A stretch of DNA of 64,000 nucleotides from Candidatus Moraniibacteriota bacterium (GTDB taxonomy: Bacteria; Patescibacteriota; Minisyncoccia; Moranbacterales; UBA2206). The notes under the pieces are model-generated. The model was given only the letters and a program-made list of their open reading frames with translations. It ran no database searches and had not been told where the DNA came from. This document shows, in pieces, positions 7 through 59,573 of the stretch. The position numbers and the translations under genes were made by a program. The DNA is taken from positions 41,828 to 105,827 of the forward strand of contig JAUXSK010000018.1 of the NCBI GenBank assembly GCA_030679995.1. Reading direction: 5' to 3'. The number at the start of each line of letters is the position of its first letter. Position 1 is the stretch's first letter.

Positions 7-1137
7 TTGGAATCATTTGAAATCGACGTTCCTATGGAAAACAGATTGGTCGGCAAGCTGTTTTTCGTGCCCTATGCTGCCAGAGATGACCTACGGAGAA
101 TTTTGAAACAGGCTTTGCTCGAAAACAGGCAAAGACTTGGTAACCTCACGCTGGGTCAATGGATTCAAGAGTTTGAAAAAACCTTCAACATCCACACTCG
201 GACAAAATCAGCTCCGGTTGAATTTGTTTCCCGCCATCCGCAAGCAATCCTACTCAATCCCATCGAAAGACGGAGACTAAAAGAAATCATCCATACTTAT
301 GACTATTTGCTGGTTTCAACCCTGCCAACCACCGAGCCTGAGCTTAGTGAAATGTTAGCCAATATGCCGGACACGGAAACATCCGAAAAACAAGACGGCT
401 CCGCAAGAGCAACCTACGCTCCGGAATCCTACAGAAAAAGCTTCTCTGGAAATTCGACATCCGCAGACACAGCAATCATTCCGCTAGACGAAATTTTGAA
501 ACAATTTCCCGAAATCGGCGAACAAATCATCACTTCCAACCGTATACAAATCCTGAGCTTTCCCGAACCGGCGCGCCCGTCCATCAAAAATTGGCTGGCT
601 GATTACACGTCCATCCTGGGCAACGAACCGCACGATTCCATAGCCCGGGGCAATTATTTGTTCCATGAAAAAAATACGCAGAACCTGAGTTCAACCAACA
701 GGAACAGATTGGCTTACATCCTGAAATCCTTCGATGAAAAAACCCCAATCACGATGGACAAGTCAAGCAAACAAATAATCTTCGACGATACGAACGAAAT
801 CCCGGAACCCAGAAAAAACGATCAGAATTCTCAAAACACTTCGACGCAAAAAACGCCAACCGCCAACTACGCGCCGCAAACCAACAAAATCAGCTTTTCT
901 TCCCCGCAGAAATTATCCTTTGAAAAAATAACACCCCCTGCCAAAACCGCCACCGTTCCGGCCAACCTTCCGACTGGAAACCTCGCCAGACCGGCACAAT
1001 TCGGAAATAACCAGCCCGGCAGGATGACCAACCAGCAACCCTACCGCATCACGCCGTCCGGCAGCCGGCAACAGATTGTCGATACGAAAGCGATGCCAAG
1101 AGTGTTGCCGAAGAATGTGGTAAACCTGCGCGATTAA
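7..1137 (+). CDS. Hypothetical protein with a Pro/Gln/Thr/Asn-rich low-complexity C-terminal half. The ORF opens at the window edge with TTG, so the true start may lie upstream or at the ATG at 34.
   Basis: Long uninterrupted ORF with coding-like composition and no recognisable catalytic motif. Confidence 0.4.
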   Translation: MESFEIDVPMENRLVGKLFFVPYAARDDLRRILKQALLENRQRLGNLTLGQWIQEFEKTFNIHTRTKSAPVEFVSRHPQAILLNPIERRRLKEIIHTYDYLLVSTLPTTEPELSEMLANMPDTETSEKQDGSARATYAPESYRKSFSGNSTSADTAIIPLDEILKQFPEIGEQIITSNRIQILSFPEPARPSIKNWLADYTSILGNEPHDSIARGNYLFHEKNTQNLSSTNRNRLAYILKSFDEKTPITMDKSSKQIIFDDTNEIPEPRKNDQNSQNTSTQKTPTANYAPQTNKISFSSPQKLSFEKITPPAKTATVPANLPTGNLARPAQFGNNQPGRMTNQQPYRITPSGSRQQIVDTKAMPRVLPKNVVNLRD

Positions 1138-1178
1138 ATTCAAAATCTAAAATTACAAATTCCAAATAAATCACAATG
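1138..1178. repeat. Left arm of the AT-rich palindromic intergenic repeat (copy R1). It ends in ...CCAAATAAATCACAATG, and that ATG is the start codon of the four-helix-bundle gene.
   Basis: Direct comparison with the full copies at 2020-2147 and 2835-2974 shows the shared AAATYCARAATYYAAAATTACAARYTCCAAATAAAT..CAATG left arm. Confidence 0.7.
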
Positions 1179-1538
1179 TCCGAAATCCAAAAAACAAAAC
1201 GATACGATTTAGAGGATAGAACGTTAGAGTTTGGAAAGAGAATTTTGAGATTAGCAAAGGCCTTGCCAAAAAACACAATAAATTTCAAGTTAATTGATCA
1301 ATTTGTCCGTTCCGGCACTTCAATGGGAGCAAACTACCGAGAAGCTAATGAAACTGAAACCAAAAAAGATTTTAAATTTAGAATGAGAATATGCAGAAAA
1401 GAAGGTAAAGAGACCATTTATTGGCTATATTTAATAGCCGAAGCTAATCCAGAATTTGAAGAAAGAATAAAACCACTTTTACAAGAAACGACTGAAATCG
1501 TAAAAATATTCGCCGCCATTCTTGTAAAATGTGAATGA
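1176..1538 (+). CDS. Four-helix-bundle protein of the 23S rRNA intervening-sequence protein family, nested between the two arms of repeat copy R1.
   Basis: 120 aa, all-helical and Lys/Glu-rich. The FGKRILRL...IDQFVRSGTSMGANYREA...YWLYLI pattern is typical of the family. Assignment is by recall, without an HMM search. Confidence 0.7.
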   Translation: MSEIQKTKRYDLEDRTLEFGKRILRLAKALPKNTINFKLIDQFVRSGTSMGANYREANETETKKDFKFRMRICRKEGKETIYWLYLIAEANPEFEERIKPLLQETTEIVKIFAAILVKCE

Positions 1539-1602
1539 TTTTGATGATTTTGAATTTAATATTTATTTGGAATTTGTAATTTTGTATTTGTAATTTAAAC
1601 AT
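1539..1602. repeat. Right arm of the palindromic repeat (copy R1), ending in TATG, which supplies the start codon of the downstream gene.
   Basis: ATTTATTTGGAATTTGTAATTTTGTATTTGTAATTTAAACATATG is the inverted complement of the left arm and matches the 3' ends of R2 and R3. Confidence 0.7.
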
Positions 1603-8855: not shown

Positions 8856-9821
8856 ATGTATAAAAAATTAACCGCCCTTCTTTTAGCCGTATTTTGTCTT
8901 GCGCCGACCTTGGTGCTCGCAGGCGCCTTCGATTACAGGCCGATGGAAATGATTCCCGGCTTTGAAGCTGAAACCGTCGGCAATTTCTACACCTATATCG
9001 GAGCGGTCTATAAATTCGGCCTATGGACCGTAGGGATTTGCGCGATGTTTATGATCGGCATCGGCGGCTATATGTACATCATATCCGCCGGCAACAGTTC
9101 CAGTATGACCAAAGCAAAGGGAGTGATTATCGACGCTATCGCCGGTTTGATCCTGGCGCTGGTTTCCTTTCTGATCCTATACGAAATCAATCCTAATTTA
9201 GTCAAATTAGGCGGCAACGACATCGGCGGCAATACCGCTTTGACTGAAAAGATTATCACCTCAAAAACATTAACCAAGGGCTGTGAAAACTACGCCAATG
9301 ATTTTGAATCCGCTTCCGGAGGCGATAAAAACCTGAAATGCCTACTTATCGGCATCGCCAATGCGGAAAGCAATTGCAATCCTAGTGCGATCAGTAAACA
9401 TAACGCCTGCGGAATGATGCAAATCTTACCGGCAACTGCCGGGCAATCCTGTGAGGAACTGTTATCCAATCCGTCCGCCAGCATCCAAAAAGCCGCTTCG
9501 ATCATCGCTTCCTCCCGCAACAGTATTCCGTCATCTTCCGGCTTTTCACTGGGAACAAGTTATGCCCTCGCTAAAACTACGGTAAGCTATGGCGATTATA
9601 CCTATGACACCGGCAATGACGACTTGATCGCCGCTTATAACGCCGGCTCCGGAAAAATTGCCGCTACGCCGGGCAAAGCCGGTCCATTCGTAGTTTCAAC
9701 GGACTGCCCGAGCCCGACCACTCCCGCCTGGCAATGCCATATCAATCCGGGCGGATTTTCCGAAACCCAAAAATATGTTATGCGCGTCCAATCGTTCCAA
9801 GCGGCTTGCTTGGCTAAATAA
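8856..9821 (+). CDS. Secreted lytic transglycosylase (SLT domain, VirB1-like) with an N-terminal VirB2/TrbC-like hydrophobic hairpin.
   Basis: SLT catalytic signature AESNCNPSAISKHNACGMMQI (E-S...GLMQ type). The N-terminal signal peptide is followed by two hydrophobic helices separated by SAGNSSSMTKAKG. Confidence 0.6.
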   Translation: MYKKLTALLLAVFCLAPTLVLAGAFDYRPMEMIPGFEAETVGNFYTYIGAVYKFGLWTVGICAMFMIGIGGYMYIISAGNSSSMTKAKGVIIDAIAGLILALVSFLILYEINPNLVKLGGNDIGGNTALTEKIITSKTLTKGCENYANDFESASGGDKNLKCLLIGIANAESNCNPSAISKHNACGMMQILPATAGQSCEELLSNPSASIQKAASIIASSRNSIPSSSGFSLGTSYALAKTTVSYGDYTYDTGNDDLIAAYNAGSGKIAATPGKAGPFVVSTDCPSPTTPAWQCHINPGGFSETQKYVMRVQSFQAACLAK

Positions 9822-9836
9822 CCATCTTTCTATTTT

Positions 9837-10973
9837 ATGATCCTATCTAAAAAAATTTTTATATTTTCCTCAATCGCCCTAGTTATTGTCTTGATTCTCT
9901 GGGGAATCTACAGCCTGTCTTTTCGTAAGATTCCGGAACAGCTTGCCACCTTGAAAAGTCCAAGCCCATCATTATCGACGGCGTCCAAAAATGTTGCCGC
10001 AATTGAACCGCTCACCGATGAGGCTGTTTTATCACCCGCGCTTTCCCCGGACGGCGCATCCATCAGATATTATTCAAAAACCAATGGCAAGGCGTATGTA
10101 ATCAACCTTGCTGACCGCGATAAACGGGCTATTTCCGAGAAAGAATTGATCGGTTTATCCGACATAATCTGGTCGCCGGACAGATCCAAGGTTATTTCCG
10201 AGTTTTCAACCGCGACCGGCCGCTCCAAATTCTTTCTGTATGACTACGCACAAAACAAAGGCACGCAACTAAAAGACAATCTCGACACCGTCGTCTGGCA
10301 AAACAATGAAAAAATATTTTATAAATATTTCGACGCGAAAACCCAGACAAGAACCCTCAACTTCGCCAATCCGGACGGATCAAGCTGGCAGAAAATAACC
10401 GATTTGGCGATGAAGGATTTGCTTATCGCACCCATTCCGCGGACCAGTCTGGTTTCATTTTGGAACAAACCGGATGCTTTCACGGAAACCCTGATGCAAT
10501 CCTCGCCGGTTCTGGGCGGAGAAAGAAAAAACATTGTCAAAGGAAAATATGGAGCCGATTATCTCTGGAGCCAGGACGGCAATTCGCTTCTCGTGGGCAG
10601 TGTTGATGCCAAAGGCGGTTCAAAGCTGCAACTGGGCGTAACCAACAGCCTGGGCGGCGAATACCGGAATCTTGGCATTCCGACCCTTGTTTCTAAATGC
10701 ACCTGGTCAAAAAACAACAAAGCCATTTATTATGCTTTGCCTGGAGCGATTCCAACCGAAGCGATCTTGCCTAATGATTACTTAACCGACAAATTCCGTA
10801 CCAATGACACCTTTTGGAAAATCGATGTCGCTACGGGAGAAAAATCCCGCTTGGTAGATTTGGAAAACATAACTGCCGCCTATGATGCCGCCGACTTATT
10901 CCTGGATCCGGATGAAAGCCTGTTGTTTTTCACCAACAAGATCGATGGCAAGCTATATAAAATCACTCTCTGA
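9837..10973 (+). CDS. Membrane-anchored TolB-like (PD40) beta-propeller protein.
   Basis: N-terminal TM helix. Repeated SPDG/WSPD-type PD40 motifs (LSPDGASIRYYS, IWSPDRSKVISEF). Confidence 0.5.
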   Translation: MILSKKIFIFSSIALVIVLILWGIYSLSFRKIPEQLATLKSPSPSLSTASKNVAAIEPLTDEAVLSPALSPDGASIRYYSKTNGKAYVINLADRDKRAISEKELIGLSDIIWSPDRSKVISEFSTATGRSKFFLYDYAQNKGTQLKDNLDTVVWQNNEKIFYKYFDAKTQTRTLNFANPDGSSWQKITDLAMKDLLIAPIPRTSLVSFWNKPDAFTETLMQSSPVLGGERKNIVKGKYGADYLWSQDGNSLLVGSVDAKGGSKLQLGVTNSLGGEYRNLGIPTLVSKCTWSKNNKAIYYALPGAIPTEAILPNDYLTDKFRTNDTFWKIDVATGEKSRLVDLENITAAYDAADLFLDPDESLLFFTNKIDGKLYKITL

Positions 10974-12167
10974 CTACTTTATGCGCAATGTTGTCTTCCG
11001 CTCCGAGCTAGGCTCGGAGCTTTTTTTAATCCCAACAAAAAAACTCAGCCAAAACAAGACCGCCAAATCGTTCTTAAAATAAGTGGTATCAAAAATACCG
11101 TGCACCAATATGTAGATTATGATTGCGGCAGCTCCCCAATCAACCTCTTTTTTCCAACTGCCTGATAAATCCCTGAACCAGAGGACTAATATTGCCAAAA
11201 AGCCCACTAAGCCGGCTAGTCCGGCCTGCAACCAGAACGCCAAAAACAAATTGTGCGGCTGCGGCACCGCCCATTCCAGATAAGGCGGAAAATATTTTTG
11301 ATATTCCAAATATTTGTCCTGGAAATTTCCCGGACCGATGCCTAAAAAAGCGTTATCAACAATCATTTTTCCAGCTGAATTCCAAATCATCATACGCGAA
11401 GCCAAGGAAGATCGATCCTCCAATCGCACCAGACCATCAAATTTACTGGTGCCTATTTGGAAAAATATAATTATCCCCGCAACCAATCCCAGAAACAACG
11501 CGCTTTTCCATTTTTTCCAACCGTTTTCATTTAAAAAAACCAAACCGCCAGCCGCGACAAAAACCGCCAGCCAAGCGGCATATGAAAATGTCAGATATAA
11601 CGCGCTCAAAATAATCGGCAAGGAAATCGCGTAGAATGCTTTCCTTTTAGCGAAAAATGCGCCGCCTATGATAATAGCTGGCGCTAAAAACATCGCCAAA
11701 TAATTCGGGGAATTATAAAACGCTTTAAGTCTGCCGTCATATGTCATTTCACCCAGAAAAAAATAGACCAGCGCTACGCTCGCGACCAGCAAGGCCGAAA
11801 TATAAGTCGCTTCCAAAACAGCCCCGCTCTTTTCCCGCCGAGTCGCTTCAAGTGCGACAAAAGCGAAAACCATCGGAATGATAAACCAGCTTTTTATTAT
11901 ACCTAATCCGACCAAGACAGAGCCACCAAAAAGCGTTCCAAGCGCGAGTCCACCCATAATCATTACAATGGGTATGAAATATTTTTCATATCCTCTGAGC
12001 GCGATTTTGAAGGTCCTGCGCTCAATCACAAACCAGATCACCGCGACGGATGCCATCAATTCAAACATATTCGTAGGCACGCCTAGAAAAGAAATTTTCC
12101 ATAGGTACGCCGGCATCGCGACGATGGCCCAATAAATAAAATTTTCCAAGCTAAATGTTTTTTTCAT
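10974..12167 (-). CDS. O-antigen ligase / Wzy_C-domain polytopic membrane protein.
   Basis: Wzy_C signature ...MMIWNSAGKMIVDNAFLGIGPGNFQ, with more than 10 TM helices. Confidence 0.65.
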   Translation of the reverse strand: MKKTFSLENFIYWAIVAMPAYLWKISFLGVPTNMFELMASVAVIWFVIERRTFKIALRGYEKYFIPIVMIMGGLALGTLFGGSVLVGLGIIKSWFIIPMVFAFVALEATRREKSGAVLEATYISALLVASVALVYFFLGEMTYDGRLKAFYNSPNYLAMFLAPAIIIGGAFFAKRKAFYAISLPIILSALYLTFSYAAWLAVFVAAGGLVFLNENGWKKWKSALFLGLVAGIIIFFQIGTSKFDGLVRLEDRSSLASRMMIWNSAGKMIVDNAFLGIGPGNFQDKYLEYQKYFPPYLEWAVPQPHNLFLAFWLQAGLAGLVGFLAILVLWFRDLSGSWKKEVDWGAAAIIIYILVHGIFDTTYFKNDLAVLFWLSFFVGIKKSSEPSSERKTTLRIK

Positions 12168-15807: not shown

Positions 15808-15883
15808 GTGCGAAATTTCAAATTTTAATTTAAAATCCCAATCTCGATTGAAATTTTTCTTAAAATATGAGTAATTTATGATT

Positions 15884-30540: not shown

Positions 30541-31200
30541 CTAGAGTTTTTTAATAATATCTTTGAAACGGATATATTCGCTCACCCGCAATCCGGTCCA
30601 GCGGCCGATCATAACATTAAAGGGTATGGTGAATAGGATGACCCAGGGATAGGCGACCAAGAGTTTTATCAATGCTCCCCAACTGGCGATATAAAAGCCT
30701 GCTACGGAAATGACCAGGGTTTCAAACGCCAAGATGAGCGCGGTCTTATTGCCTTTTTCAATTTGCACGGCGACGAATTTTTCTACCAGCGTGATCATAA
30801 TCAAAATAGGGAAAATTGAAACGGAAGCCAGTCCGGTCCTGCGCAGGTTGCCGCCGAAAACAAGCAACAATAGGATTAAAACGGCAACGACGGTCAACAT
30901 TATGGCGACACGGGGAAGGTAGAGGAGCCGGAAGGGCTTGAGGATGAAGCGCATCAGCATCCCGATGAAAATGACCGCTAAAAAAATCGCCACGCCATAA
31001 CGCAATCCGTTAGTAGCCAGGAAGGCGAAGGTGATGATAAGGGGCGTGTAGATGCCAAAAGCTTTGATACCGACGACTTGGCGCAAGAAAGCGATCAAAG
31101 TCGCGATAATCGGCAACATCAGGATTAAGATGATCGTTTCAAAAGGCACGCCTTCGATAAGGAAAAAACGGATTATGGGGCTGATGTTCAAGTCCATCAA
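30541..31200 (-). CDS. 7TM membrane protein, first gene of the ATP-grasp cassette. It may be related to the 7TM modules linked to RimK-like ligases.
   Basis: Seven predicted hydrophobic helices in 219 aa. It is spaced 4 nt from the next gene on the same strand. Confidence 0.5.
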   Translation of the reverse strand: MMDLNISPIIRFFLIEGVPFETIILILMLPIIATLIAFLRQVVGIKAFGIYTPLIITFAFLATNGLRYGVAIFLAVIFIGMLMRFILKPFRLLYLPRVAIMLTVVAVLILLLLVFGGNLRRTGLASVSIFPILIMITLVEKFVAVQIEKGNKTALILAFETLVISVAGFYIASWGALIKLLVAYPWVILFTIPFNVMIGRWTGLRVSEYIRFKDIIKKL

Positions 31201-31287
31201 GTTTTTAAGTTTTTAAGTTTTTAATTTTTTAAATGATGTTCGGAGAACATCATTGCTGAAATTAAAAATCAAAAATTCGTTTAAAAA
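31201..31287. repeat. AT-rich intergenic element with (GTTTTTAA)x3 direct repeats and a palindrome.
   Basis: AAGTTTTTAAGTTTTTAAGTTTTTAATTTTTTAAATGATGTTCGGAGAACATCATT...AAAAATTAAAAATT. Confidence 0.5.
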
Positions 31288-31806
31288 TTAAAAATTGTTA
31301 ACTTTCCGGCTGTTTATGTGGCAAATGGCGATCGCTAAGGCGTCAGCCGTATCATCCGGCTTAGGCACGGCTTTCAGGCCTAAAATGCTTTTAACCATCA
31401 GCTGGACCTGCTTCTTTTCCGCTTTGCCGTAGCCTGTGACGGCTTGCTTCACTTGCAGTGGCGTGTAGCTAGCTATCTTGACACCTTTTTGCTCTAGTGT
31501 CAAGAGGATGCCGCCTCTGGATTGCCCGACACTGATGATAGTCTTTTTATTTTTGAAAAAGAATAGCTGTTCCACGGCCGCTTCGCGGGGATGGTATTTT
31601 TCAATGATATTGACAAGATCTTCGGATATCTCAGCCAAGCGGTTTTCCTCTGAATTGTTTTTGGGGGTGGAAATATGCCCGAAAGCCACCGGAACAAGAA
31701 TTCCGGCATTTTCTTCAATAATAGCCCAGCCGACCGTCGCCGTGCCTGGATCTATGCCCAAAACGCGTAACGGATGGCTTATGATTTGTTTTTTAGCTCC
31801 CCCCAT
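31288..31806 (-). CDS. ruvC: Holliday junction resolvase RuvC.
   Basis: LGIDPGTATVGWAII N-terminal RNase H-fold motif, 172 aa. Confidence 0.85.
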   Translation of the reverse strand: MGGAKKQIISHPLRVLGIDPGTATVGWAIIEENAGILVPVAFGHISTPKNNSEENRLAEISEDLVNIIEKYHPREAAVEQLFFFKNKKTIISVGQSRGGILLTLEQKGVKIASYTPLQVKQAVTGYGKAEKKQVQLMVKSILGLKAVPKPDDTADALAIAICHINSRKVNNF

Positions 31807-37106: not shown

Positions 37107-38195
37107 TCAGATTAATTTGTTAGCGTTTGAATATTTTATGCCCAGGTGGTTGTAGGCGTGCTCGGTCACCATGCGGCCGCGCGGAGTCCTGGTCATAAAG
37201 CCGATTTGCAAGAGATAGGGTTCGTAGACATCCTCGATCGTCTTTATTTCTTCGCTGGTTGCCGCGGCGATCGTGCTCAGGCCGACCGGTCCGCCGTTGA
37301 ATTTTTCGATAATGGTGCGCAAGATGTGGCGGTCGGCCGGTTCCAACCCGATCGGGTCGACGTCGATCATTTCCAGGGCTTCCTGCGCGATGGCGCTGTC
37401 CACGAATGGGTGGTTTTTGATCTGTGAAAAGTCGCGTACGCGTTTCAAAAGCCGGTTGGCGACGCGCGGGGTTTGGCGGGCGCAACTGGCGATTTTGGCT
37501 AGTCCGGTGTCGTGGATATCCACGCCTAGGATCCGGCTGGATCTTTTGATGATATCCTTCACTTCCTCGTTTCCATAGAATTCCAACCGGTAGGTAGCGC
37601 CGAAACGGTTACGCAACGGATTGGTGAGTGATCCAAGTTTGGTCGTGGCGCCGATAAGGGTGAATTTAGGCAGATCCAACTGGATGGTGCGGGCCGAGGG
37701 GCCTTTGCCGATGATGATATCCAATTTGAAATCTTCCATCGCCGGATAGAGGATTTCTTCGATGGATTTATTGAGCCGGTGGATTTCATCGATAAATAGG
37801 ATATCGCCATCTTGCAAATTAGTCAGGATCGAACCGAAATCGCCGACGCGCTCGATGGCCGGGCCGGAAGTGGTCTTAATGTTGACGCCCATTTCTTTGG
37901 CGATGATGTTGGCCAGAGTCGTTTTGCCTAGTCCAGCCGGGCCGTATAGCAGGATGTGTTCGATAGGCTCTTTACGTTTTTTGGCGGCGCGAAGCAGGAA
38001 ATCCAGATTTTTTTTGACTTTCTCCTGGCCGATATATTCGGAAAAACTCTGGGGACGCAAGGTGTTATCCAGATTATTGTCTTCAACGGTTGCTTTCGGC
38101 TGGGTAGCGGAGGCCAGATCATTGAATTGTTCGGATGAATCGACTAACACAAGTAGTTTTAAATTTTCAATTTTAAATTTAAAATGAAATCCCAA
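37107..38195 (-). CDS. ruvB: Holliday junction helicase RuvB. Its N-terminal ~25 codons are encoded by AT-rich repeat sequence, so the true start may be further downstream.
   Basis: Walker [15 protein letters not shown], Walker [11 protein letters not shown] and sensor motifs. Confidence 0.9.
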
Positions 38196-38285
38196 ATGTT
38201 TAAATTTTTAAACATTCAGCATTTAAAATTGATTTAAAATTTCAAATTTATAAATTTAAAATTATAGGCTTTAGCCTCATTGTAG
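38150..38285. repeat. AT-rich repeat/palindrome element related to the intergenic repeat family.
   Basis: TTTTAAATTTTCAATTTTAAATTTAAAATGAAATCCCAAATGTTTAAATTTTTAAACAT... containing the perfect palindrome ATGTTTAAATTTTTAAACAT. Confidence 0.5.
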
Positions 38286-43075: not shown

Positions 43076-44356
43076 TCAATGGCTGATTTCTTTTATTTTC
43101 TTAGCGATCGATTCTCCAGCCTCAGCTATGTTGGCCATAGTTAGGTGTATCTCCAATGTGTCGCGCTTGAGCGTGCCGTTGAAAAACTGATTGATTCTTT
43201 TTAGCAATTCTTGGTCGGATGATTTCAAATCAGCTACGGTCGAAAGGGAAGTATCATTATAGAGAGCCATAAAAATTTTACCATCACTGTAGTTTTCCTG
43301 CAATTTCTCCAAAATCAGCGCGATATCGGTTTGGTTGGAACGGCTTTGCACGAAATCTTCCACACTGATGATTGTCCAAACCAATTTAGTCTGTTCATCC
43401 AGATTGAGATTTGACATGGCGCGCCCCCAAAGTTTCAGGATATGCAAAGGCTGGGTTTTGTACAGCCAGCGGATGATAGTCTGCTGGTCGGCTTTTTTGT
43501 CCATCAGGGCGGCGGCGGCCAAGAGGGATCGCGGAGTGGTGTTTTTCTTCTGGAAACTTTCCGTGGCGCTGATGATACCGGTCAGAAGACAGTCGGCGAT
43601 AGCCTTGTCGATCAGGTTCACATCCATATCATTGAAGGCGGCGCTTAGGATTTCGCTGCAAGATGAAGCGGTGGTATCGACCAGGTTGATTTGGCCGAAA
43701 TTGTCATTGTCGCTGCGGTGGTCGATATTGACGATCGGGACTTCGAAAAACAGATCCGGATTATTCTCATATATCTTGCCGAGCCGTTCCAAGTCCGGGC
43801 TGTCCAAAACAACGATCAGGTCATATTTGAATTTGGCCAGGATGAAAGAGAAATCACGCGGATTGAGCGCGCCTTTCTCAGGCGTCAGATAAATATTCAA
43901 TTTATCGGCTGTTTTTTCCGTGCGGATATCCCGGATCTTATTGTAGGCCGTGTCGAATGACAGTACGAAGTCGCGGGCGCCGGAAATTTCCGTGAGGATC
44001 CCCTCCGGCTTAGGCAGGAAATCATATTTGGCGGAGAGGTGGTTGGAAAAGGCGATCGTAGCCCGGACGCCTTTTTTTTGCAGAAAAAAATAGAGCGCCC
44101 AAGCGCTGCCGACCGCATCTCCGCTGGGATTTTCCGGAATCAAAACCAGTACATCTTGGGATTTGTCTATGAATTGCTTGAATTGTTCCTGGGGTGACAG
44201 TGTCATAAGTTGATAGTTATTTTTAAGCAGTATTACAAGATAACAGGATAAAAAGCGCGTGTCAAATAAAGCCCTCTTTTCTTTTTGGCGGATTACCGCT
44301 AACATATGTATGTTATGGAAAAAGAATTTATCACTGGAAATTTCAAAGAAACGCAA
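43076..44356 (-). CDS. nrnA: DHH/DHHA1-family phosphoesterase (NrnA-like nanoRNase / pAp phosphatase).
   Basis: DHH-family layout with VNIDHRSDNDNFG (a DHR variant of the DHH motif) and a C-terminal DHHA1-like GGGH region. Confidence 0.6.
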   Translation of the reverse strand: MRFFEISSDKFFFHNIHMLAVIRQKEKRALFDTRFLSCYLVILLKNNYQLMTLSPQEQFKQFIDKSQDVLVLIPENPSGDAVGSAWALYFFLQKKGVRATIAFSNHLSAKYDFLPKPEGILTEISGARDFVLSFDTAYNKIRDIRTEKTADKLNIYLTPEKGALNPRDFSFILAKFKYDLIVVLDSPDLERLGKIYENNPDLFFEVPIVNIDHRSDNDNFGQINLVDTTASSCSEILSAAFNDMDVNLIDKAIADCLLTGIISATESFQKKNTTPRSLLAAAALMDKKADQQTIIRWLYKTQPLHILKLWGRAMSNLNLDEQTKLVWTIISVEDFVQSRSNQTDIALILEKLQENYSDGKIFMALYNDTSLSTVADLKSSDQELLKRINQFFNGTLKRDTLEIHLTMANIAEAGESIAKKIKEISH

Positions 44357-44854
44357 AAATTAGGCAAGTCCCTGGCTTTAGAGATTGGAAACGAGCTCCA
44401 AGGTCCAGCCTTGTCTTCAATAGCGCGATCTCAAAGTCCGATTCTGGAAGGCGCCTTCGTGTTTTGTCTGGAAGGCGATTTGGGCGCCGGAAAAACCACG
44501 TTCACGCAGGGGGTATTGAAAGGATTGGGAGCTGAGGGGCCATACACGAGCCCGACCTTTCTCATAATGAAAGAATATAATTTGCAAGATACAAAATACA
44601 AGAAACAAGAAACAAAAAAATTCAAAATTCAAAATTCAAAATTCAAAATTCGGAACATATATCATATTGACGCGTATCGGGTTGGAGCTGAAGATGTTTT
44701 GAGTCTAGGCTGGGAAGAGATGATCGCCGATCCGAAAAACGTCGTAATCGTGGAATGGCCGGAAAAAATCGCACGGATATTACCGGAAAATTCAATCAGG
44801 ATAAAATTTGAGTGGCTGGATGAGAATCAGAGGAAAATAACCTTTGGAAAATAA
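44306..44854 (+). CDS. tsaE: tRNA threonylcarbamoyladenosine biosynthesis ATPase TsaE (YjeE), carrying an in-frame ~20-aa Lys-rich insertion derived from a repeat element.
   Basis: Walker A LEGDLGAGKTTFTQG, then SPTFLIMKEY and IYHIDAYRV. The insertion NLQDTKYKKQETKKFKIQNSKFKIRN lies between the conserved Y and H. The start may be at 44315. Confidence 0.75.
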   Translation: MYVMEKEFITGNFKETQKLGKSLALEIGNELQGPALSSIARSQSPILEGAFVFCLEGDLGAGKTTFTQGVLKGLGAEGPYTSPTFLIMKEYNLQDTKYKKQETKKFKIQNSKFKIRNIYHIDAYRVGAEDVLSLGWEEMIADPKNVVIVEWPEKIARILPENSIRIKFEWLDENQRKITFGK

Positions 44855-52074: not shown

Positions 52075-52944
52075 ATGCCGGAATTGCCTGAGGTCCAGAC
52101 GGTCGTCTCGGATCTGAATGAAAAAATCAAAGGCGACACCATCGTCGATTTTTGGAGTGGGTGGCCGAAAGCGATCAAGGGAAAGTCCTTGGCTTTGTTC
52201 ACGAAAGAAATCGCGGAGCGGAAAATCTTGGGCGCGCGCCGGATCGGGAAAAACATCTTCATCGATCTGTCGGGTGGGAAAACTTTATATTTGCATTTGA
52301 AAATGACAGGACACTTACTGGTAAAAGTTCAAAATCCAAAATCCAAAGCCGAGGATTATTTCGCGGACAGGGTCAATCAATATATCAGGCACAGCTGGAC
52401 GTTAAAAACTAAAAACCATAAACTAAAAACCATTGAGTTTTCGGATATGCGGAAGTTCGCCAAGATCGTTTTGGATGATACGGACAGAATCGCCCAGTTG
52501 CCGGAAATCGAAGCGTTGGGGGTTGACGCGATGGATCCTGAATTCACTTGGCAAAAATTCGATGAAATCCTGGATAAGAAAAAAAACGCGCCCATCGGGA
52601 TCCTGCTGATGGATCAGTCTTTGATCGCCGGTATCGGCAACATCTATCGCAGTGAAATTCTTTTTGAAGCCGGCATCTTGCCGACTAGAAAAGCGGCGGA
52701 TATCGCAAGGGAGGAAAGGAAAAAACTCTTTCGCTCGATCGGGAAAATTTTGCGGAAAGCCGTCAAATTGCGGGGAACTTCCGATTCCGATTACCGTGAC
52801 ACCTCGGGAGCGCCGGGCGGTTACCAGAAGGTTTTGCAAGTCTATCGCAAAGCTGGTGAAAAATGTCAAAGATGTGATACAATAATCAAGCGGGCGGTTT
52901 TGGGGCAGAGAAGCGTTTTTTATTGCCCGGACTGCCAGAAGTGA
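52075..52944 (+). CDS. mutM: Formamidopyrimidine-DNA glycosylase (Fpg/MutM).
   Basis: N-terminal MPELPEVQT catalytic Pro2/Glu3, an H2TH region and a C-terminal zinc finger CQRCDTII...YYCPDCQ. Confidence 0.85.
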   Translation: MPELPEVQTVVSDLNEKIKGDTIVDFWSGWPKAIKGKSLALFTKEIAERKILGARRIGKNIFIDLSGGKTLYLHLKMTGHLLVKVQNPKSKAEDYFADRVNQYIRHSWTLKTKNHKLKTIEFSDMRKFAKIVLDDTDRIAQLPEIEALGVDAMDPEFTWQKFDEILDKKKNAPIGILLMDQSLIAGIGNIYRSEILFEAGILPTRKAADIAREERKKLFRSIGKILRKAVKLRGTSDSDYRDTSGAPGGYQKVLQVYRKAGEKCQRCDTIIKRAVLGQRSVFYCPDCQK

Positions 52945-56431: not shown

Positions 56432-57409
56432 ATGCGGGATAACAAAAGCAGTTTCATAGCCAAGAACTCCCCGGATGGAGGATTTTTGCAATCGGATTGG
56501 TGGAAAAATTTCCAATCGGCGGTCGGCAGGAAAAATCTGAATATCAAAGGCGAGACATTTTGGAACAATATTTTCGAACACAAACTGCCTATCGTCGGTA
56601 AATATTTTTATATTCCGCGCGGTAACATATTCAAGATCAAAGATAAAAATGTCAAGAACTATTTTGACAATCTGATCGGTTTGGCCAGGGATAATGGCGC
56701 TGGCTGGATACGGATCGAGCCGGCCTCGCAGGAGGTCCTTGAATTGACCCGTAAAAATGTAAGTTTGCCGATCATAAAAACCCCGCACGAGATGCAACCG
56801 AGAGAGCTTTTTATTATTGATTGCGCCAAGAGCGAGGCGGAGTTATTGGCGGCGATGAAGCCGAAAACGCGCTATAATATCAGGTTGGCGGAGAAAAAAA
56901 ACGTCAAAGTCATCGTTTCCAACCGCAAGGAATGCATAGATAGTTTTTGCGATTTGGTGGAAATCACAAGCAAACGGCAAGGGATAACTCCGCATCCGAG
57001 AAATTATTATCAGAAAATGTTCGAAGTTGTCCCGAGTGAAAATATTAAGCTATACTGTGCGGAATTCGAAGGGGAGATAATAGCCGCCAATATAGTCATA
57101 TTTTTCGGAAATACCGTCACTTATCTGCACGGAGCTTCCGACGATCGGTTCCGCAATGTGATGGCGCCCTATCTTTTGCAATGGAGGCAAATCCAGGATG
57201 CGAAAAAGGCCGGCGCGGTCGGCTATGATTTTGGCGGAGTAAAAACGCAAACGGAGGATAATAATTGGGCGGGTATCACCCGGTTTAAATTTGGTTTTTC
57301 ACCGGCGACCAAGGTCAGCGAATTTCCCGGCAATTACGATATCATCCTGAACCCCTTTAAATACCAGGCCTACAGGCTGATCCGGAAAATAAAAAGTTTT
57401 TTGCGGTAA
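56432..57409 (+). CDS. FemAB-family peptidoglycan interpeptide aminoacyltransferase.
   Basis: KSEAELLAAMKPKTRYNIRLAEKKNVKV and GAVGYDFGGV match FemAB motifs. Confidence 0.65.
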   Translation: MRDNKSSFIAKNSPDGGFLQSDWWKNFQSAVGRKNLNIKGETFWNNIFEHKLPIVGKYFYIPRGNIFKIKDKNVKNYFDNLIGLARDNGAGWIRIEPASQEVLELTRKNVSLPIIKTPHEMQPRELFIIDCAKSEAELLAAMKPKTRYNIRLAEKKNVKVIVSNRKECIDSFCDLVEITSKRQGITPHPRNYYQKMFEVVPSENIKLYCAEFEGEIIAANIVIFFGNTVTYLHGASDDRFRNVMAPYLLQWRQIQDAKKAGAVGYDFGGVKTQTEDNNWAGITRFKFGFSPATKVSEFPGNYDIILNPFKYQAYRLIRKIKSFLR

Positions 57410-57532
57410 ACTGAAGACGTATGGATCAACTCTCCTGCAGGGGGGTTGATTTTTTATATCCGGGATGGTATAGTGCAAAACTCCCGTTCTTTCATTAAAT
57501 TTAAAATCAATCGGCAAAAGGAGGTGGTTTAG

Positions 57533-58183
57533 GTGGTTGCAATCGTCAGGAGGGGCTGGGTAGATGTCGATGTCTTCAAGTTTGCCCGTAAGAATGATAA
57601 ACCTTGGACGCTTTTGGCTTTGAGATACGCCAAGTTATATTTCCAGGGGATGTATCGCAAGGACGGCCGGGATGCTTTCGTGCATGCGTACAAAGTCGCC
57701 CAAATCTTGATTTACTTCGGTGTTTGGGATGACGAGGTCATAGCTGCGGGTATTTTGCATGATATCCTGGAAGACGTATCTTATGCGGCTTTGGATGTTT
57801 TGAGTCAAGTTTTTCCGCAAAGAACGGTCTCGCTGGTTGTCATTGTGACAAAATTCGAAGGGGTTATATTAGCTGAGTATTTCCATAATATCAGCCTTAA
57901 TCCTTTCACTGTCCTGATCAAGTTGGCAGACAGGTTACATAACTTGCGCAATATGATCAAAAATCTGGATAAGAAACATTGTTTCAATCTGGAAAAGCTT
58001 CGCGAGCAATCACAGGAGACGAACGATTTCGTTGTCCGCCTGCCGTATGCGGCGATTGTCCGTGAGAAAACCAAGGCATCAGGATGCCCGCCGGAATATT
58101 TTTCCGCTATGGCGGCTATGGCAGGTGAATTGCGTGAAGCGGTCCATCTGGCTAAAGTTATTTTGGCTGGGCTGGTCATCTGA
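57533..58183 (+). CDS. HD-domain protein resembling the RelA/SpoT-type (p)ppGpp hydrolase domain (a small alarmone hydrolase-like protein).
   Basis: HAYKVAQILIYFGVWDDEVIAAGILHDILEDV matches the H...A..L.....D...I.AALLHDvvED HD motif. There is no synthetase domain. Confidence 0.55.
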   Translation: MVAIVRRGWVDVDVFKFARKNDKPWTLLALRYAKLYFQGMYRKDGRDAFVHAYKVAQILIYFGVWDDEVIAAGILHDILEDVSYAALDVLSQVFPQRTVSLVVIVTKFEGVILAEYFHNISLNPFTVLIKLADRLHNLRNMIKNLDKKHCFNLEKLREQSQETNDFVVRLPYAAIVREKTKASGCPPEYFSAMAAMAGELREAVHLAKVILAGLVI

Positions 58184-58238
58184 GGGGGTCTGCTTGCATT
58201 TCGCAACCGGACCCTTTTTCTATGTTATAATTCAAAAT

Positions 58239-59573
58239 ATGAAAAGATTGGTTCCGCAAAAATTGAAAAATATTTATCATCTATTCCAAGCCATCTTGGC
58301 GAATATTCGGTATGGCTTTCCGACTAGGAAGATGAAAACCATCGGCATCACCGGCACGGACGGCAAAACTACGACCTGTCAGATGGTAGCTAAGATTTTG
58401 GAAGAGGCTGGTAAGAAAGTGGCGATGGCTTCCACCATAAATTTCCGCATCAACGGCGAGGAAGAAAAAAACCTTTCCCACTTCACGACTTTGTCGGCTT
58501 TCGCGGTGCAGAAATTCGCGAGGCGGGCGGTGGACGCGGGCTGTGAATATCTGGTTTTGGAAACTTCTTCGCATTCACTCGATCAATACCGGGTGTGGGG
58601 AGTGGATTATAAAACGGCGGTCATTACTAACGTGACGCGCGAGCATTTGGACTATCACCAGACGATGGAAAAATACCGCCAAGCCAAGGCGAGGCTTTTT
58701 AAAAAAGTCCAAGTAGCAATCGTGAATCTGGATATGGAAAAACCGGAGGAATATTTCGACCGTGGCGCGGGTAACATTTTGGGATATGGCTTGAAAATCC
58801 AAAATCCAAAATTACAAATTTCAAATAAATGCAAAATTCAAAATCAAAAATTCAAAACCGTCATTGCTCAAAATATTGAATTAGGAATTGATAAATCAGC
58901 TTTTTCAGTCGGTGATCAAAAGTTTATTTTAAATTTGATCGGGGATTTCAATATTGAAAACGCGCTGGCGGCTATCAGCGTCGGGGTTTCGGAAAATATC
59001 GATCTGGCGACTTGCGCCAGGGCCTTGGAGAAAATCACCGGCGTGCCGGGACGGATGGAATATGTGCCGAATGGCAGGGGATTGAATATTCTGGTGGATT
59101 TCGCTTTGACGCCGATCGCTCTGGAAAAACTATACTCGGTGCTTTTGAAAATAAAAAAACCGGAAGCGCGGATCATTGCGGTTTTTGGATCGTGCGGGGA
59201 ACGCGATCGCGGCAAGCGGCCGATTATGGGCGCAGTCGTTTCCAAATATGCTGATTTCGTGATTGTGACCGATGACGAGCCTTATCATGAAAATCCAGTC
59301 CAGATAATAAATGAAATATTTTATGGCGTTATCGGACAGAGGATGGCAGACGAGATCCCGAATCAAGATCCAAACAAAAAAATAGAAGGTGAAAATTGCT
59401 GGAGAATAACGGGCAGAAGGGAAGCGATCAGAAAGGCTTTGGAAATAGCCAAACCCGAGGATATTATCGCCGTCACCGGCATGGGAGCGGAAGAATCGAT
59501 GATAGTGGGGGATGAAAAAATCCCGTGGAACGACCGGCAGGTGATTTTGGAGGAGTTAAAAAAGATAAAATAA
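58239..59573 (+). CDS. murE: Mur ligase family protein (MurE-like UDP-MurNAc-tripeptide ligase) with an in-frame ~24-aa repeat-derived insertion.
   Basis: GITGTDGKTTT P-loop and the VLETSSHSL...VITNVTREHLDYH central domain. The start is called at MKRLVPQKL rather than the ORF-track start at 58032, which overlaps the upstream gene. The insertion LKIQNPKLQISNKCKIQNQKFKTV lies at nt ~58792-58863. Confidence 0.8.
   Translation: MKRLVPQKLKNIYHLFQAILANIRYGFPTRKMKTIGITGTDGKTTTCQMVAKILEEAGKKVAMASTINFRINGEEEKNLSHFTTLSAFAVQKFARRAVDAGCEYLVLETSSHSLDQYRVWGVDYKTAVITNVTREHLDYHQTMEKYRQAKARLFKKVQVAIVNLDMEKPEEYFDRGAGNILGYGLKIQNPKLQISNKCKIQNQKFKTVIAQNIELGIDKSAFSVGDQKFILNLIGDFNIENALAAISVGVSENIDLATCARALEKITGVPGRMEYVPNGRGLNILVDFALTPIALEKLYSVLLKIKKPEARIIAVFGSCGERDRGKRPIMGAVVSKYADFVIVTDDEPYHENPVQIINEIFYGVIGQRMADEIPNQDPNKKIEGENCWRITGRREAIRKALEIAKPEDIIAVTGMGAEESMIVGDEKIPWNDRQVILEELKKIK

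Follow-up and report, generated by a model that had tools for sequence, protein, structure and literature searches.

Introduction

Rickettsia palindromic elements (RPE) are the textbook curiosity of selfish DNA within protein-coding genes. The ribosomal RNA intervening sequences of Leptospira and Coxiella consist of long inverted repeats that form a hairpin around an open reading frame (ORF) of about 120 amino acids, which encodes a four-helix bundle. Those of the 23S rRNA are excised by RNase III. In this work we describe a locus that recalls both systems, a MurE-family ligase gene of a Candidatus Moraniibacteriota bacterium, a member of the Candidate Phyla Radiation (CPR, or Patescibacteria), that hosts one arm of a palindromic repeat in frame. 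The gene lies in a stretch of 64,000 nucleotides (contig JAUXSK010000018.1 of assembly GCA_030679995.1, positions 41,828 to 105,827), which we call the window and whose coordinates we use throughout, unless a label for another genome or contig (L001 and the like) is given.

According to the summary in PMC10969869, RPE are palindromic repeats that are found between genes and also in frame in housekeeping genes (Ogata et al. 2000 Science 290:347), where the host protein gains a peptide at a point that its fold can accommodate. The enterobacterial ERIC/RU repeats (PMC2759123), the Coxiella QMITE (PMC5896051) and the pneumococcal BOX (PMC3049150) are characterized as small non-autonomous repeats that are sometimes fused in frame to ORFs. 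Coding palindromes, that is, inverted-repeat DNA within protein-coding sequence, are described for the mitochondrial genes of Nematomorpha (PMC6649704). A literature search on CPR, Patescibacteria, Parcubacteria and Moranbacteria found no description of such a system in the papers that it covered, and all that it returned were the analogues from Rickettsia, Coxiella, enterobacteria and Nematomorpha.

A repeat arm inside MurE

The insert occupies positions 58791 to 58862 of the forward strand, codons 185 to 208 of the MurE gene (58239-59573), and its 24 codons (LKIQNPKLQISNKCKIQNQKFKTV) are in frame and free of stop codons. A first-pass annotation, made from the sequence alone, had quoted the segment correctly but placed it at 58792-58863, one base away from the codon boundaries. 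Its statement that the inserted DNA is a multiple of three, in frame and stop-free is confirmed by the reading frame of the gene. The coding strand of the insert is the A/C-rich arm of the repeat and is almost devoid of G.

The same annotation derived the insert from a repeat found between the genes of the window, and three results bear this out. The first is a scan for a 23-nucleotide arm core (AAAATTACAAATTYCAAATAAAT), for which seven occurrences with at most three mismatches are found in the window, where 0.01 are expected. Six of the seven are the arms of three palindromes, here named E1, E2 and E3. The MurE insert is the seventh and stands without a partner arm; its core (AAAATTACAAATTTCAAATAAAT, positions 58808 to 58830 of the forward strand) is non-periodic and is diagnostic of the repeat family. 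The second is a set of blastn-short matches between the insert and E3 (2835-2903, 85.5% identity over 69 nucleotides), the left arm of E1 (92% over 36 nucleotides) and the reverse complement of the right arm of E1 (89% over 45 nucleotides), with E values between 1e-6 and 5e-9 for the E1 and E3 arms. The third is a joint alignment, in which the insert spans one arm from end to end, from the first bases of the element to the hairpin apex, AAAACCG. The insert had been described as a truncated copy, the left arm plus part of the centre, and here the description needs to be changed: the insert is exactly one whole arm, and it ends at the symmetry centre. The repeat family is found in Moranbacteria-like CPR bacteria; its members are AT-rich palindromes of about 130 nucleotides, and the 72 nucleotides in murE correspond to one arm in full length.

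Parent elements

The nearest full-length element that is 'empty', in the sense of hosting no gene, is E3 (2833-2968), with a left arm that runs to about position 2901 and a right arm that starts at about 2902. It folds into a hairpin of -33.5 kcal/mol (z-score -6.61). The second empty element, E2 (2018-2145), has a hairpin of -35.5 kcal/mol (z-score -6.35), and for neither of these does any shuffled sequence fold equally well. In E1 (1135-1599, forward strand) the exact core is found in both arms, and the left arm (1135-1175) and the right arm (1545-1599) enclose a gene at 1176-1538. Its product, of 120 amino acids, is a four-helix bundle, as shown by matches to PF05635 (1.1e-17) and TIGR02436 (1.8e-23); the nearest solved relative is 2rld. 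The arms of the parent elements are inverted over their whole length, and so form terminal inverted repeats. All three elements are located at the start of the window, within an operon that includes a TraG/VirB4-like ATPase, and each takes up its spacer completely, reaching from the preceding stop codon to the ATG that follows. Inverted repeats also flank a PF05635 ORF in a related genome (L008 4330-4795), and in five metagenome loci, among the matches listed, the arms lie 364-398 nucleotides apart around a four-helix-bundle gene. The ATG of the four-helix-bundle gene of E1 falls within an arm, and the empty copies retain this ATG as mini-ORFs (MFKIKKFKTV..., MAKIQNCFKF).

The parent copies sit between protein-coding genes and not within a 23S rRNA gene. 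A scan of the whole window against Rfam matched no family and no rRNA, and a tRNA scan of the window found none. The exact arm core has no match in viral contigs, so there is no sign that the element is carried by phages.

The likeness of the parent element to 23S rRNA intervening sequences raises the question of whether the segment is lost on the way to the mature protein, by RNA processing, translational bypass or protein splicing. The single arm offers no hairpin for cleavage, with z-scores of about zero (0.18 on the forward strand and -0.60 on the reverse strand), and the encoded peptide, just 24 amino acids in length, contains no intein motifs. Furthermore, the insert is stop-free and in frame, as expected under selection on translation, and we give removal hardly any weight.

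Host gene and ancestral state

The host gene (58239-59573, forward strand) is intact and encodes a MurE-family Mur ligase of 444 amino acids, as indicated by profile, domain and structure matches. The whole protein scores 383.8 bits against the murE model TIGR01085 (E-value 1.3e-114), for which the cutoff is 257.3, and it contains the domains Mur_ligase_M (PF08245, 5.8e-46) and Mur_ligase_C (PF02875, 8.3e-23). The model of the host protein superposes on solved MurE structures with template modelling (TM) scores of 0.81-0.83, and its closest relatives are annotated as Candidatus Moranbacteria or Moraniibacteriota. The three-domain fold of MurE is incomplete here: the N-terminal UDP-binding domain is absent and the match begins at position 69 of TIGR01085. 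The canonical N-terminal domain is missing across the Moranbacteria orthologues, all of which are short (412-497 amino acids).

Where the insert lies, solved MurE structures show no more than a short turn, and the outgroups (Saccharibacteria, Berkelbacteria, Roizmanbacteria and Firmicutes) have a TYSLKSNADL-like sequence there with no insert. From 121 Moranbacteria sequences we obtained 99 distinct segments across this site, 28 of which are free of inserts, with a sequence of the type ...TYSLKNxKADIFAEN... and 17 residues between fixed anchors. The alignment to MurE orthologues that had been proposed as a check thus agrees with an insertion. In orthologues of the arm type there are 33 residues between the anchors. 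The arm had been said to add its segment to the ligase, which is correct, but the net gain is 16 residues and not 24, and the arm stands in place of a short ancestral turn (N-x-K-A-D) or overprints it.

Structure prediction, the other proposed check, places the insert in a low-confidence loop at the tip of a beta-hairpin. The AlphaFold2 model of the host MurE was built from 72 sequences and has a mean pLDDT (predicted local distance difference test) of 87.5 and a predicted TM score of 0.86. The insert lies between strands at residues 179-184 and 205-209, and the pLDDT of residues 188-202 is below 50. Because it is flanked by strands and has such a low pLDDT, the insert is probably an extended, disordered surface loop at the hairpin tip. 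As with RPE, the insertion is at a position that the fold can accommodate, a predicted loop between strands and a turn in solved MurE.

Conservation of the arm in orthologues

About 20 kb of each related genome were covered. The insert is not confined to this genome: many Moranbacteria orthologues carry the arm. The first-pass annotation had held that a similar segment in MurE of unrelated taxa would speak against an insertion. Similar segments are indeed present, even in a MurE with only 41% protein identity to the query (L119), but the outgroups are all without the insert. This MurE is as distant from the query as the insert-free outgroups, with 53% DNA identity, and it hosts an arm at the same codon that is identical at 55 of 58 positions locally and 81% identical globally. 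The contrast between an arm that is 81-95% identical and a host gene that is 53% identical, together with outgroups that lack the insert, speaks for insertion that was repeated or recent, and against the arm as an ancestral feature.

An independent metagenome-assembled genome (MAG), L001 (JAUXSI010000037), has a MurE that is 91% identical in protein and an insert that is identical at 72 of 72 positions, while diverged versions are found at the same site in L015, L008, L027, L002 and L104. These observations bear on whether the insert is an artefact of assembly or binning, for example a chimeric join via the repeat. The window is metagenome-like, and repeats can mislead assemblers. But independent assemblies made in other projects have the arm at this very codon, identical in L001 and diverged in L015, L008, L027 and L104, and the MurE domains on either side of it are intact, as is the frame. 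The probability of an artefact is therefore negligible for practical purposes.

We compared the nucleotide identity of the insert with that of the host gene outside the insert, using composition-shuffled sequences as a control (means 0.55-0.59, overall maximum 0.74). Host and insert identities are 0.88 and 1.00 for L001 (shuffled mean and maximum 0.59 and 0.74), 0.77 and 0.82 for L015 (0.58 and 0.71), 0.68 and 0.85 for L008 (0.56 and 0.69), 0.66 and 0.71 for L027 (0.55 and 0.68), 0.67 and 0.83 for L104 (0.57 and 0.71), and 0.53 and 0.81 for L119 (0.56 and 0.68). In these six comparisons the arm is never less conserved than the host gene, and mostly more so. This is not the pattern to expect from one ancient insertion that has drifted neutrally in a disordered loop. 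Conservation of the arm above that of its host calls for recent or repeated insertion, for gene conversion, or for some constraint at the DNA or RNA level.

The perfect identity with L001 was considered as conservation specific to the insert and was rejected, as it is part of a near-identical tract of 276 nucleotides that starts at the left edge of the insert. In the region compared (58743-59066) a mismatch-free run of 123 nucleotides (58791-58913) starts exactly at this edge, near-identity continues to about 59066 with approximately four mismatches in the 276 nucleotides from 58791, and the 36 nucleotides directly upstream of 58791 contain 14 mismatches. Judging from this distribution of mismatches, the tract may be the product of recombination with a breakpoint at the repeat.

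A further explanation for the conservation is that the loop has been exapted or is under constraint, either at the protein level, as a flexible Lys-rich loop, or at the DNA or RNA level, as a site for recombination or protein binding or as unstructured A-rich mRNA. The sharp drop in divergence between the window and L001 at the left edge of the insert would fit such a constraint, as would the higher conservation of the arm than of its host gene in five of the six comparisons, those beyond the sister genome, and the constant size of arm-type inserts across lineages, at 72 nucleotides and a segment of 33 amino acids. That said, recent insertion can equally result in high conservation. The site is also empty in the 28 insert-free segments and elsewhere holds unrelated peptides from unrelated repeats, the peptide itself is not conserved, with both open frames in use in different hosts (KLQIPNK and NYKFQIN), and the loop is predicted to be disordered. 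We consider exaptation improbable, although it is partly compatible with the origin of the insert that we favour below.

The gene content near murE is fluid. An HD-domain gene (HD_4, 57533-58183; region 57403-58237) that lies between a FemAB-like gene and murE in the window is missing in the sister MAG L001, which has about 5.5 kb of additional DNA 3′ of murE (L001 3880-9398).

Single arms in other genes

Metagenome contigs were scanned for the exact 23-nucleotide arm core, which is found in at least 120 stretches. The context was classified for 81 core occurrences in 80 listed loci. Empty palindromes, with the partner arm 18-114 nucleotides away, account for 32 of these. In another eight the core abuts a four-helix-bundle gene that is 50-86% identical to that of the window, and in four the arms are far apart and a four-helix-bundle gene was not detected. 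The context of 28 is unclassifiable. The remaining nine lie in frame, deep within long ORFs that can be recognised, and in no case does the ORF contain the partner arm. The hosts of these listed matches are MurE at the main site (L104 and L119) and at a C-terminal site (L082), TrhP, a U32 peptidase (L092), UvrC (L096), LepA (L128), a glycosyltransferase (L103), an O-antigen-ligase-like membrane protein (L106) and topoisomerase I, TopA (L120). Two frames of the core are open and both are in use, giving KLQI[PS]NK and NYKFQIN; the third contains a TAA. A process like that of RPE is widespread in Moranbacteria-like CPR genomes, and the MurE insert is one case of it.

These data also bear on an origin in place, through expansion of a heptanucleotide microsatellite or as a low-complexity loop, with vertical inheritance and a likeness to the repeat that is due to composition. 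The arm is made of degenerate AAAATYC heptamers, and pure in-frame heptamer arrays do exist, such as (AAAATTC)x5 in TsaE of the window and (CAAGATA)n and (AAAATTC)n in a FemAB-like gene of L009. What composition does not account for is the non-periodic core and the end-to-end alignment of the insert with a whole arm. Nor does it account for identities to other copies of 81-100%, above the shuffled maximum of 0.74, or for the same arm in nine unrelated host ORFs among the matches listed. An origin in place is thus very improbable.

Why should only one arm be found in genes? In 34 intergenic elements there are 92 stop codons in the A/C-rich arms and 167 in the T/G-rich arms. An open frame is present in 26 of the 34 A/C-rich arms compared with 17 of the 34 T/G-rich arms, and the whole palindrome can be read in some frame in just two of the 34. 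Because the element is a palindrome, the A/C-rich arm comes first and the T/G-rich arm second in either orientation. The T/G-rich arm is full of stop codons, which is most likely why only single arms persist in genes. Selection against the truncation of essential proteins accounts for much of this one-arm rule, and under such selection GC-rich palindromes can persist whole, as they do in L007.

Other inserts at the same site and in the window

The turn that hosts the arm has received other repeats. The MurE of L007 has a GC-rich palindrome at this site (TGTCATCC...GGAATGACA, encoding the peptide CHPERSGAESKDL...SLGMT), and the adjacent FemAB-like gene contains a 72-nucleotide copy of it in frame, 98.6% identical. 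This is clearly a distinct insertion of recent date; apart from it, the background looks like that of the insert-free state. Further GC-rich types of insert are found at the same turn in L011, P0080, P0095 and P0107, and in L002 and L014 GC-rich palindromes are nested within an AT-type insert. In L005 the site holds a tract of the GATACAA type, and this tract and the TsaE insert of the window match at 91.7% over 36 nucleotides.

Some details of these loci are worth recording. In L007 the FemAB-like gene (8919-10004) and MurE (10001-11359) share the GC-rich palindrome in frame; this MurE has an additional insert, SATHSVAGGPSK, close to the N-terminus, and a KIQDTITKQKTNSNIQNTNY tract is present in the FemAB-like gene. 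Several repeat families are hence found within two adjacent essential genes. The nested GC-rich palindromes belong to the loci L002 2715-2792 (e.g. CCGCCGCGGCGG) and L014 8807-8923 and 8299-8338, and L014 has a 95% identical copy in another part of the same murE. In L009 both the FemAB-like gene and MurE contain pure in-frame arrays of the heptamers (AAAATTC)n and (CAAGATA)n (9007-9035, 9634-9669 and 10658-10685), which encode peptides with a period of seven residues (KIQNSKF and QDTRYKI).

Further sites in MurE take repeat peptides in some lineages, the main one being a second hot spot after residue 364. In the window this second variable site covers residues ~365-378 (...DEIPNQDPNKK..., 59331-59370, forward strand), and residues 369-376 have a pLDDT below 50. 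Repeat peptides are clear at this site in orthologues, including the exact arm core in L082. In the query the site is possibly an older, decayed repeat insert.

The window has a second in-frame insert that is derived from a repeat. It comprises residues 92-114 of TsaE (44579-44647 of the gene at 44306-44854, forward strand), with a perfect (AAAATTC)x5 and a GATACAAAATACAAGAAACAAG tract; its 23 residues stand where the Thermotoga TsaE 6nak has 2. As the unit is seven nucleotides long, slippage by one unit would shift the frame of the essential tsaE.

Two other candidates were rejected. A G-free tract at 15813-15845 was considered as an in-gene arm on the opposite strand, but a polysaccharide-synthesis gene probably starts only downstream of it. 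Two tracts in Fpg/MutM (52075-52944, forward strand), at 52324-52349 and 52402-52434, are not clear inserts, with only 3-6 residues more than solved Fpg. These G-free, repeat-like tracts encode KVQNPKSKA and LKTKNHKLKT and may be small or decayed remnants of repeats. AT-rich tandem repeats with a period of 7-8 nucleotides are found at 31199-31296 and 38157-38263, in or beside intergenic DNA.

Discussion

The explanation that we favour, with good confidence, is that the MurE insert is selfish DNA, derived from a repeat and tolerated in a permissive loop much like an RPE. In the central domain of the ligase the arm came to lie at a beta-hairpin tip, where a turn of 5-8 residues gave way to a loop of 24 residues rich in Lys, Gln and Asn. 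This loop would be translated as an unstructured segment on the protein surface, and tolerated since the site is permissive. It would then be selfish DNA carried in an essential gene, rather than a new functional module, and its functional consequence is probably nil. The second arm may have been lost through a deletion of the inserted palindrome that broke at its centre, or avoided altogether, if a single arm was inserted or transferred by gene conversion.

Several points weigh against this account. One is that the stop-codon filter is leaky, as 17 of the 34 T/G-rich arms have one open frame. No transposase or other mobilising enzyme was identified with the repeat, the only associated gene being the four-helix bundle. 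By-eye inspection of the flanks of 13 in-gene and intergenic copies, with no near-identical pair of empty and filled alleles to define the junctions, found no consistent target-site duplication. The conservation of arms above that of their host genes (81-85% against 53-68%) should not be seen for old neutral junk in a disordered loop. Finally, the in-gene arms of the query, of TopA in L120 and of the C-terminal MurE site in L082 all end at the apex, AAAACCG or AAAACGG. Such exact ends in three independent arms look more like the product of a defined mechanism than of random deletion followed by selection.

A more ambitious hypothesis is that the hairpin and its four-helix-bundle cassette are an undescribed CPR mobile element that is currently active and repeatedly writes single arms into the same permissive loops of essential genes. 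The route would be site-selective insertion, or gene conversion from intergenic copies, and the four-helix-bundle protein, which is similar to Avd and S23p, would be a candidate factor for mobilisation or nucleic-acid binding. Such an element would explain the conserved arms, the ends that fall exactly at the apex and the recurrence at one MurE codon in proteins with 41% identity. We put this forward tentatively, and regard it as rather unlikely.

At the single MurE locus the biological consequence is probably small. The implications for the study of CPR bacteria are broader. Loops derived from repeats inflate and diversify CPR proteins, and confuse alignments, the clustering of families and gene calling. 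They could also mislead work on the structure or phylogeny of uncultured CPR organisms. The recurrence of inserts at one hairpin turn of MurE is a natural experiment that maps permissive sites in essential enzymes. Furthermore, the link between the arms and the four-helix-bundle gene is a testable lead on the function of a widespread and unexplained gene family, that of the rRNA intervening sequences and Avd.

Comparison with known systems

The parent element E1 resembles the 23S rRNA intervening sequences that host an S23p (PF05635) ORF, in that inverted repeats enclose a PF05635 ORF. The differences are that the copies described here lie in the spacers of protein-coding genes, that most are empty (32 listed occurrences, compared with 8 next to the gene) and that single arms enter genes. 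In the Nematomorpha the repeats are long and perfect and code with both of their arms, whereas here one arm only is ever coding.

The small non-autonomous repeats ERIC/RU, QMITE and BOX differ from our family in that here the in-gene copies are single arms, and no target-site duplication or transposase-bearing relative was found. Membership in the miniature inverted-repeat transposable elements fails on this last point: no related element with the same ends and a transposase was found, and between the arms there is only the four-helix-bundle gene (eight of the 81 listed occurrences, and E1). Compared with these repeats, the frequency in essential genes appears to be high.

The closest likeness is to RPE. 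As in RPE, a short palindromic family is found between genes and in frame in unrelated genes (MurE, TsaE, UvrC, TopA, LepA and TrhP), and the parent family is a palindrome of about 100-150 bp in many copies, three in the window and at least 120 stretches in metagenomes. The whole RPE palindrome is read through, whereas the MurE copy and all nine listed copies within ORFs are single arms. The host phylum also differs, the parent palindrome can hold a four-helix-bundle gene, and one protein site is occupied recurrently in lineages as distant as 41% identity. We do not claim that the family belongs to the RPE; the likeness is one of behaviour. The single-arm rule, the recurrent site, and arms that are more conserved than their hosts, with their link to a four-helix-bundle cassette, are apparently undescribed. 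CPR bacteria would be a second, phylogenetically remote and large instance of the RPE-like phenomenon.

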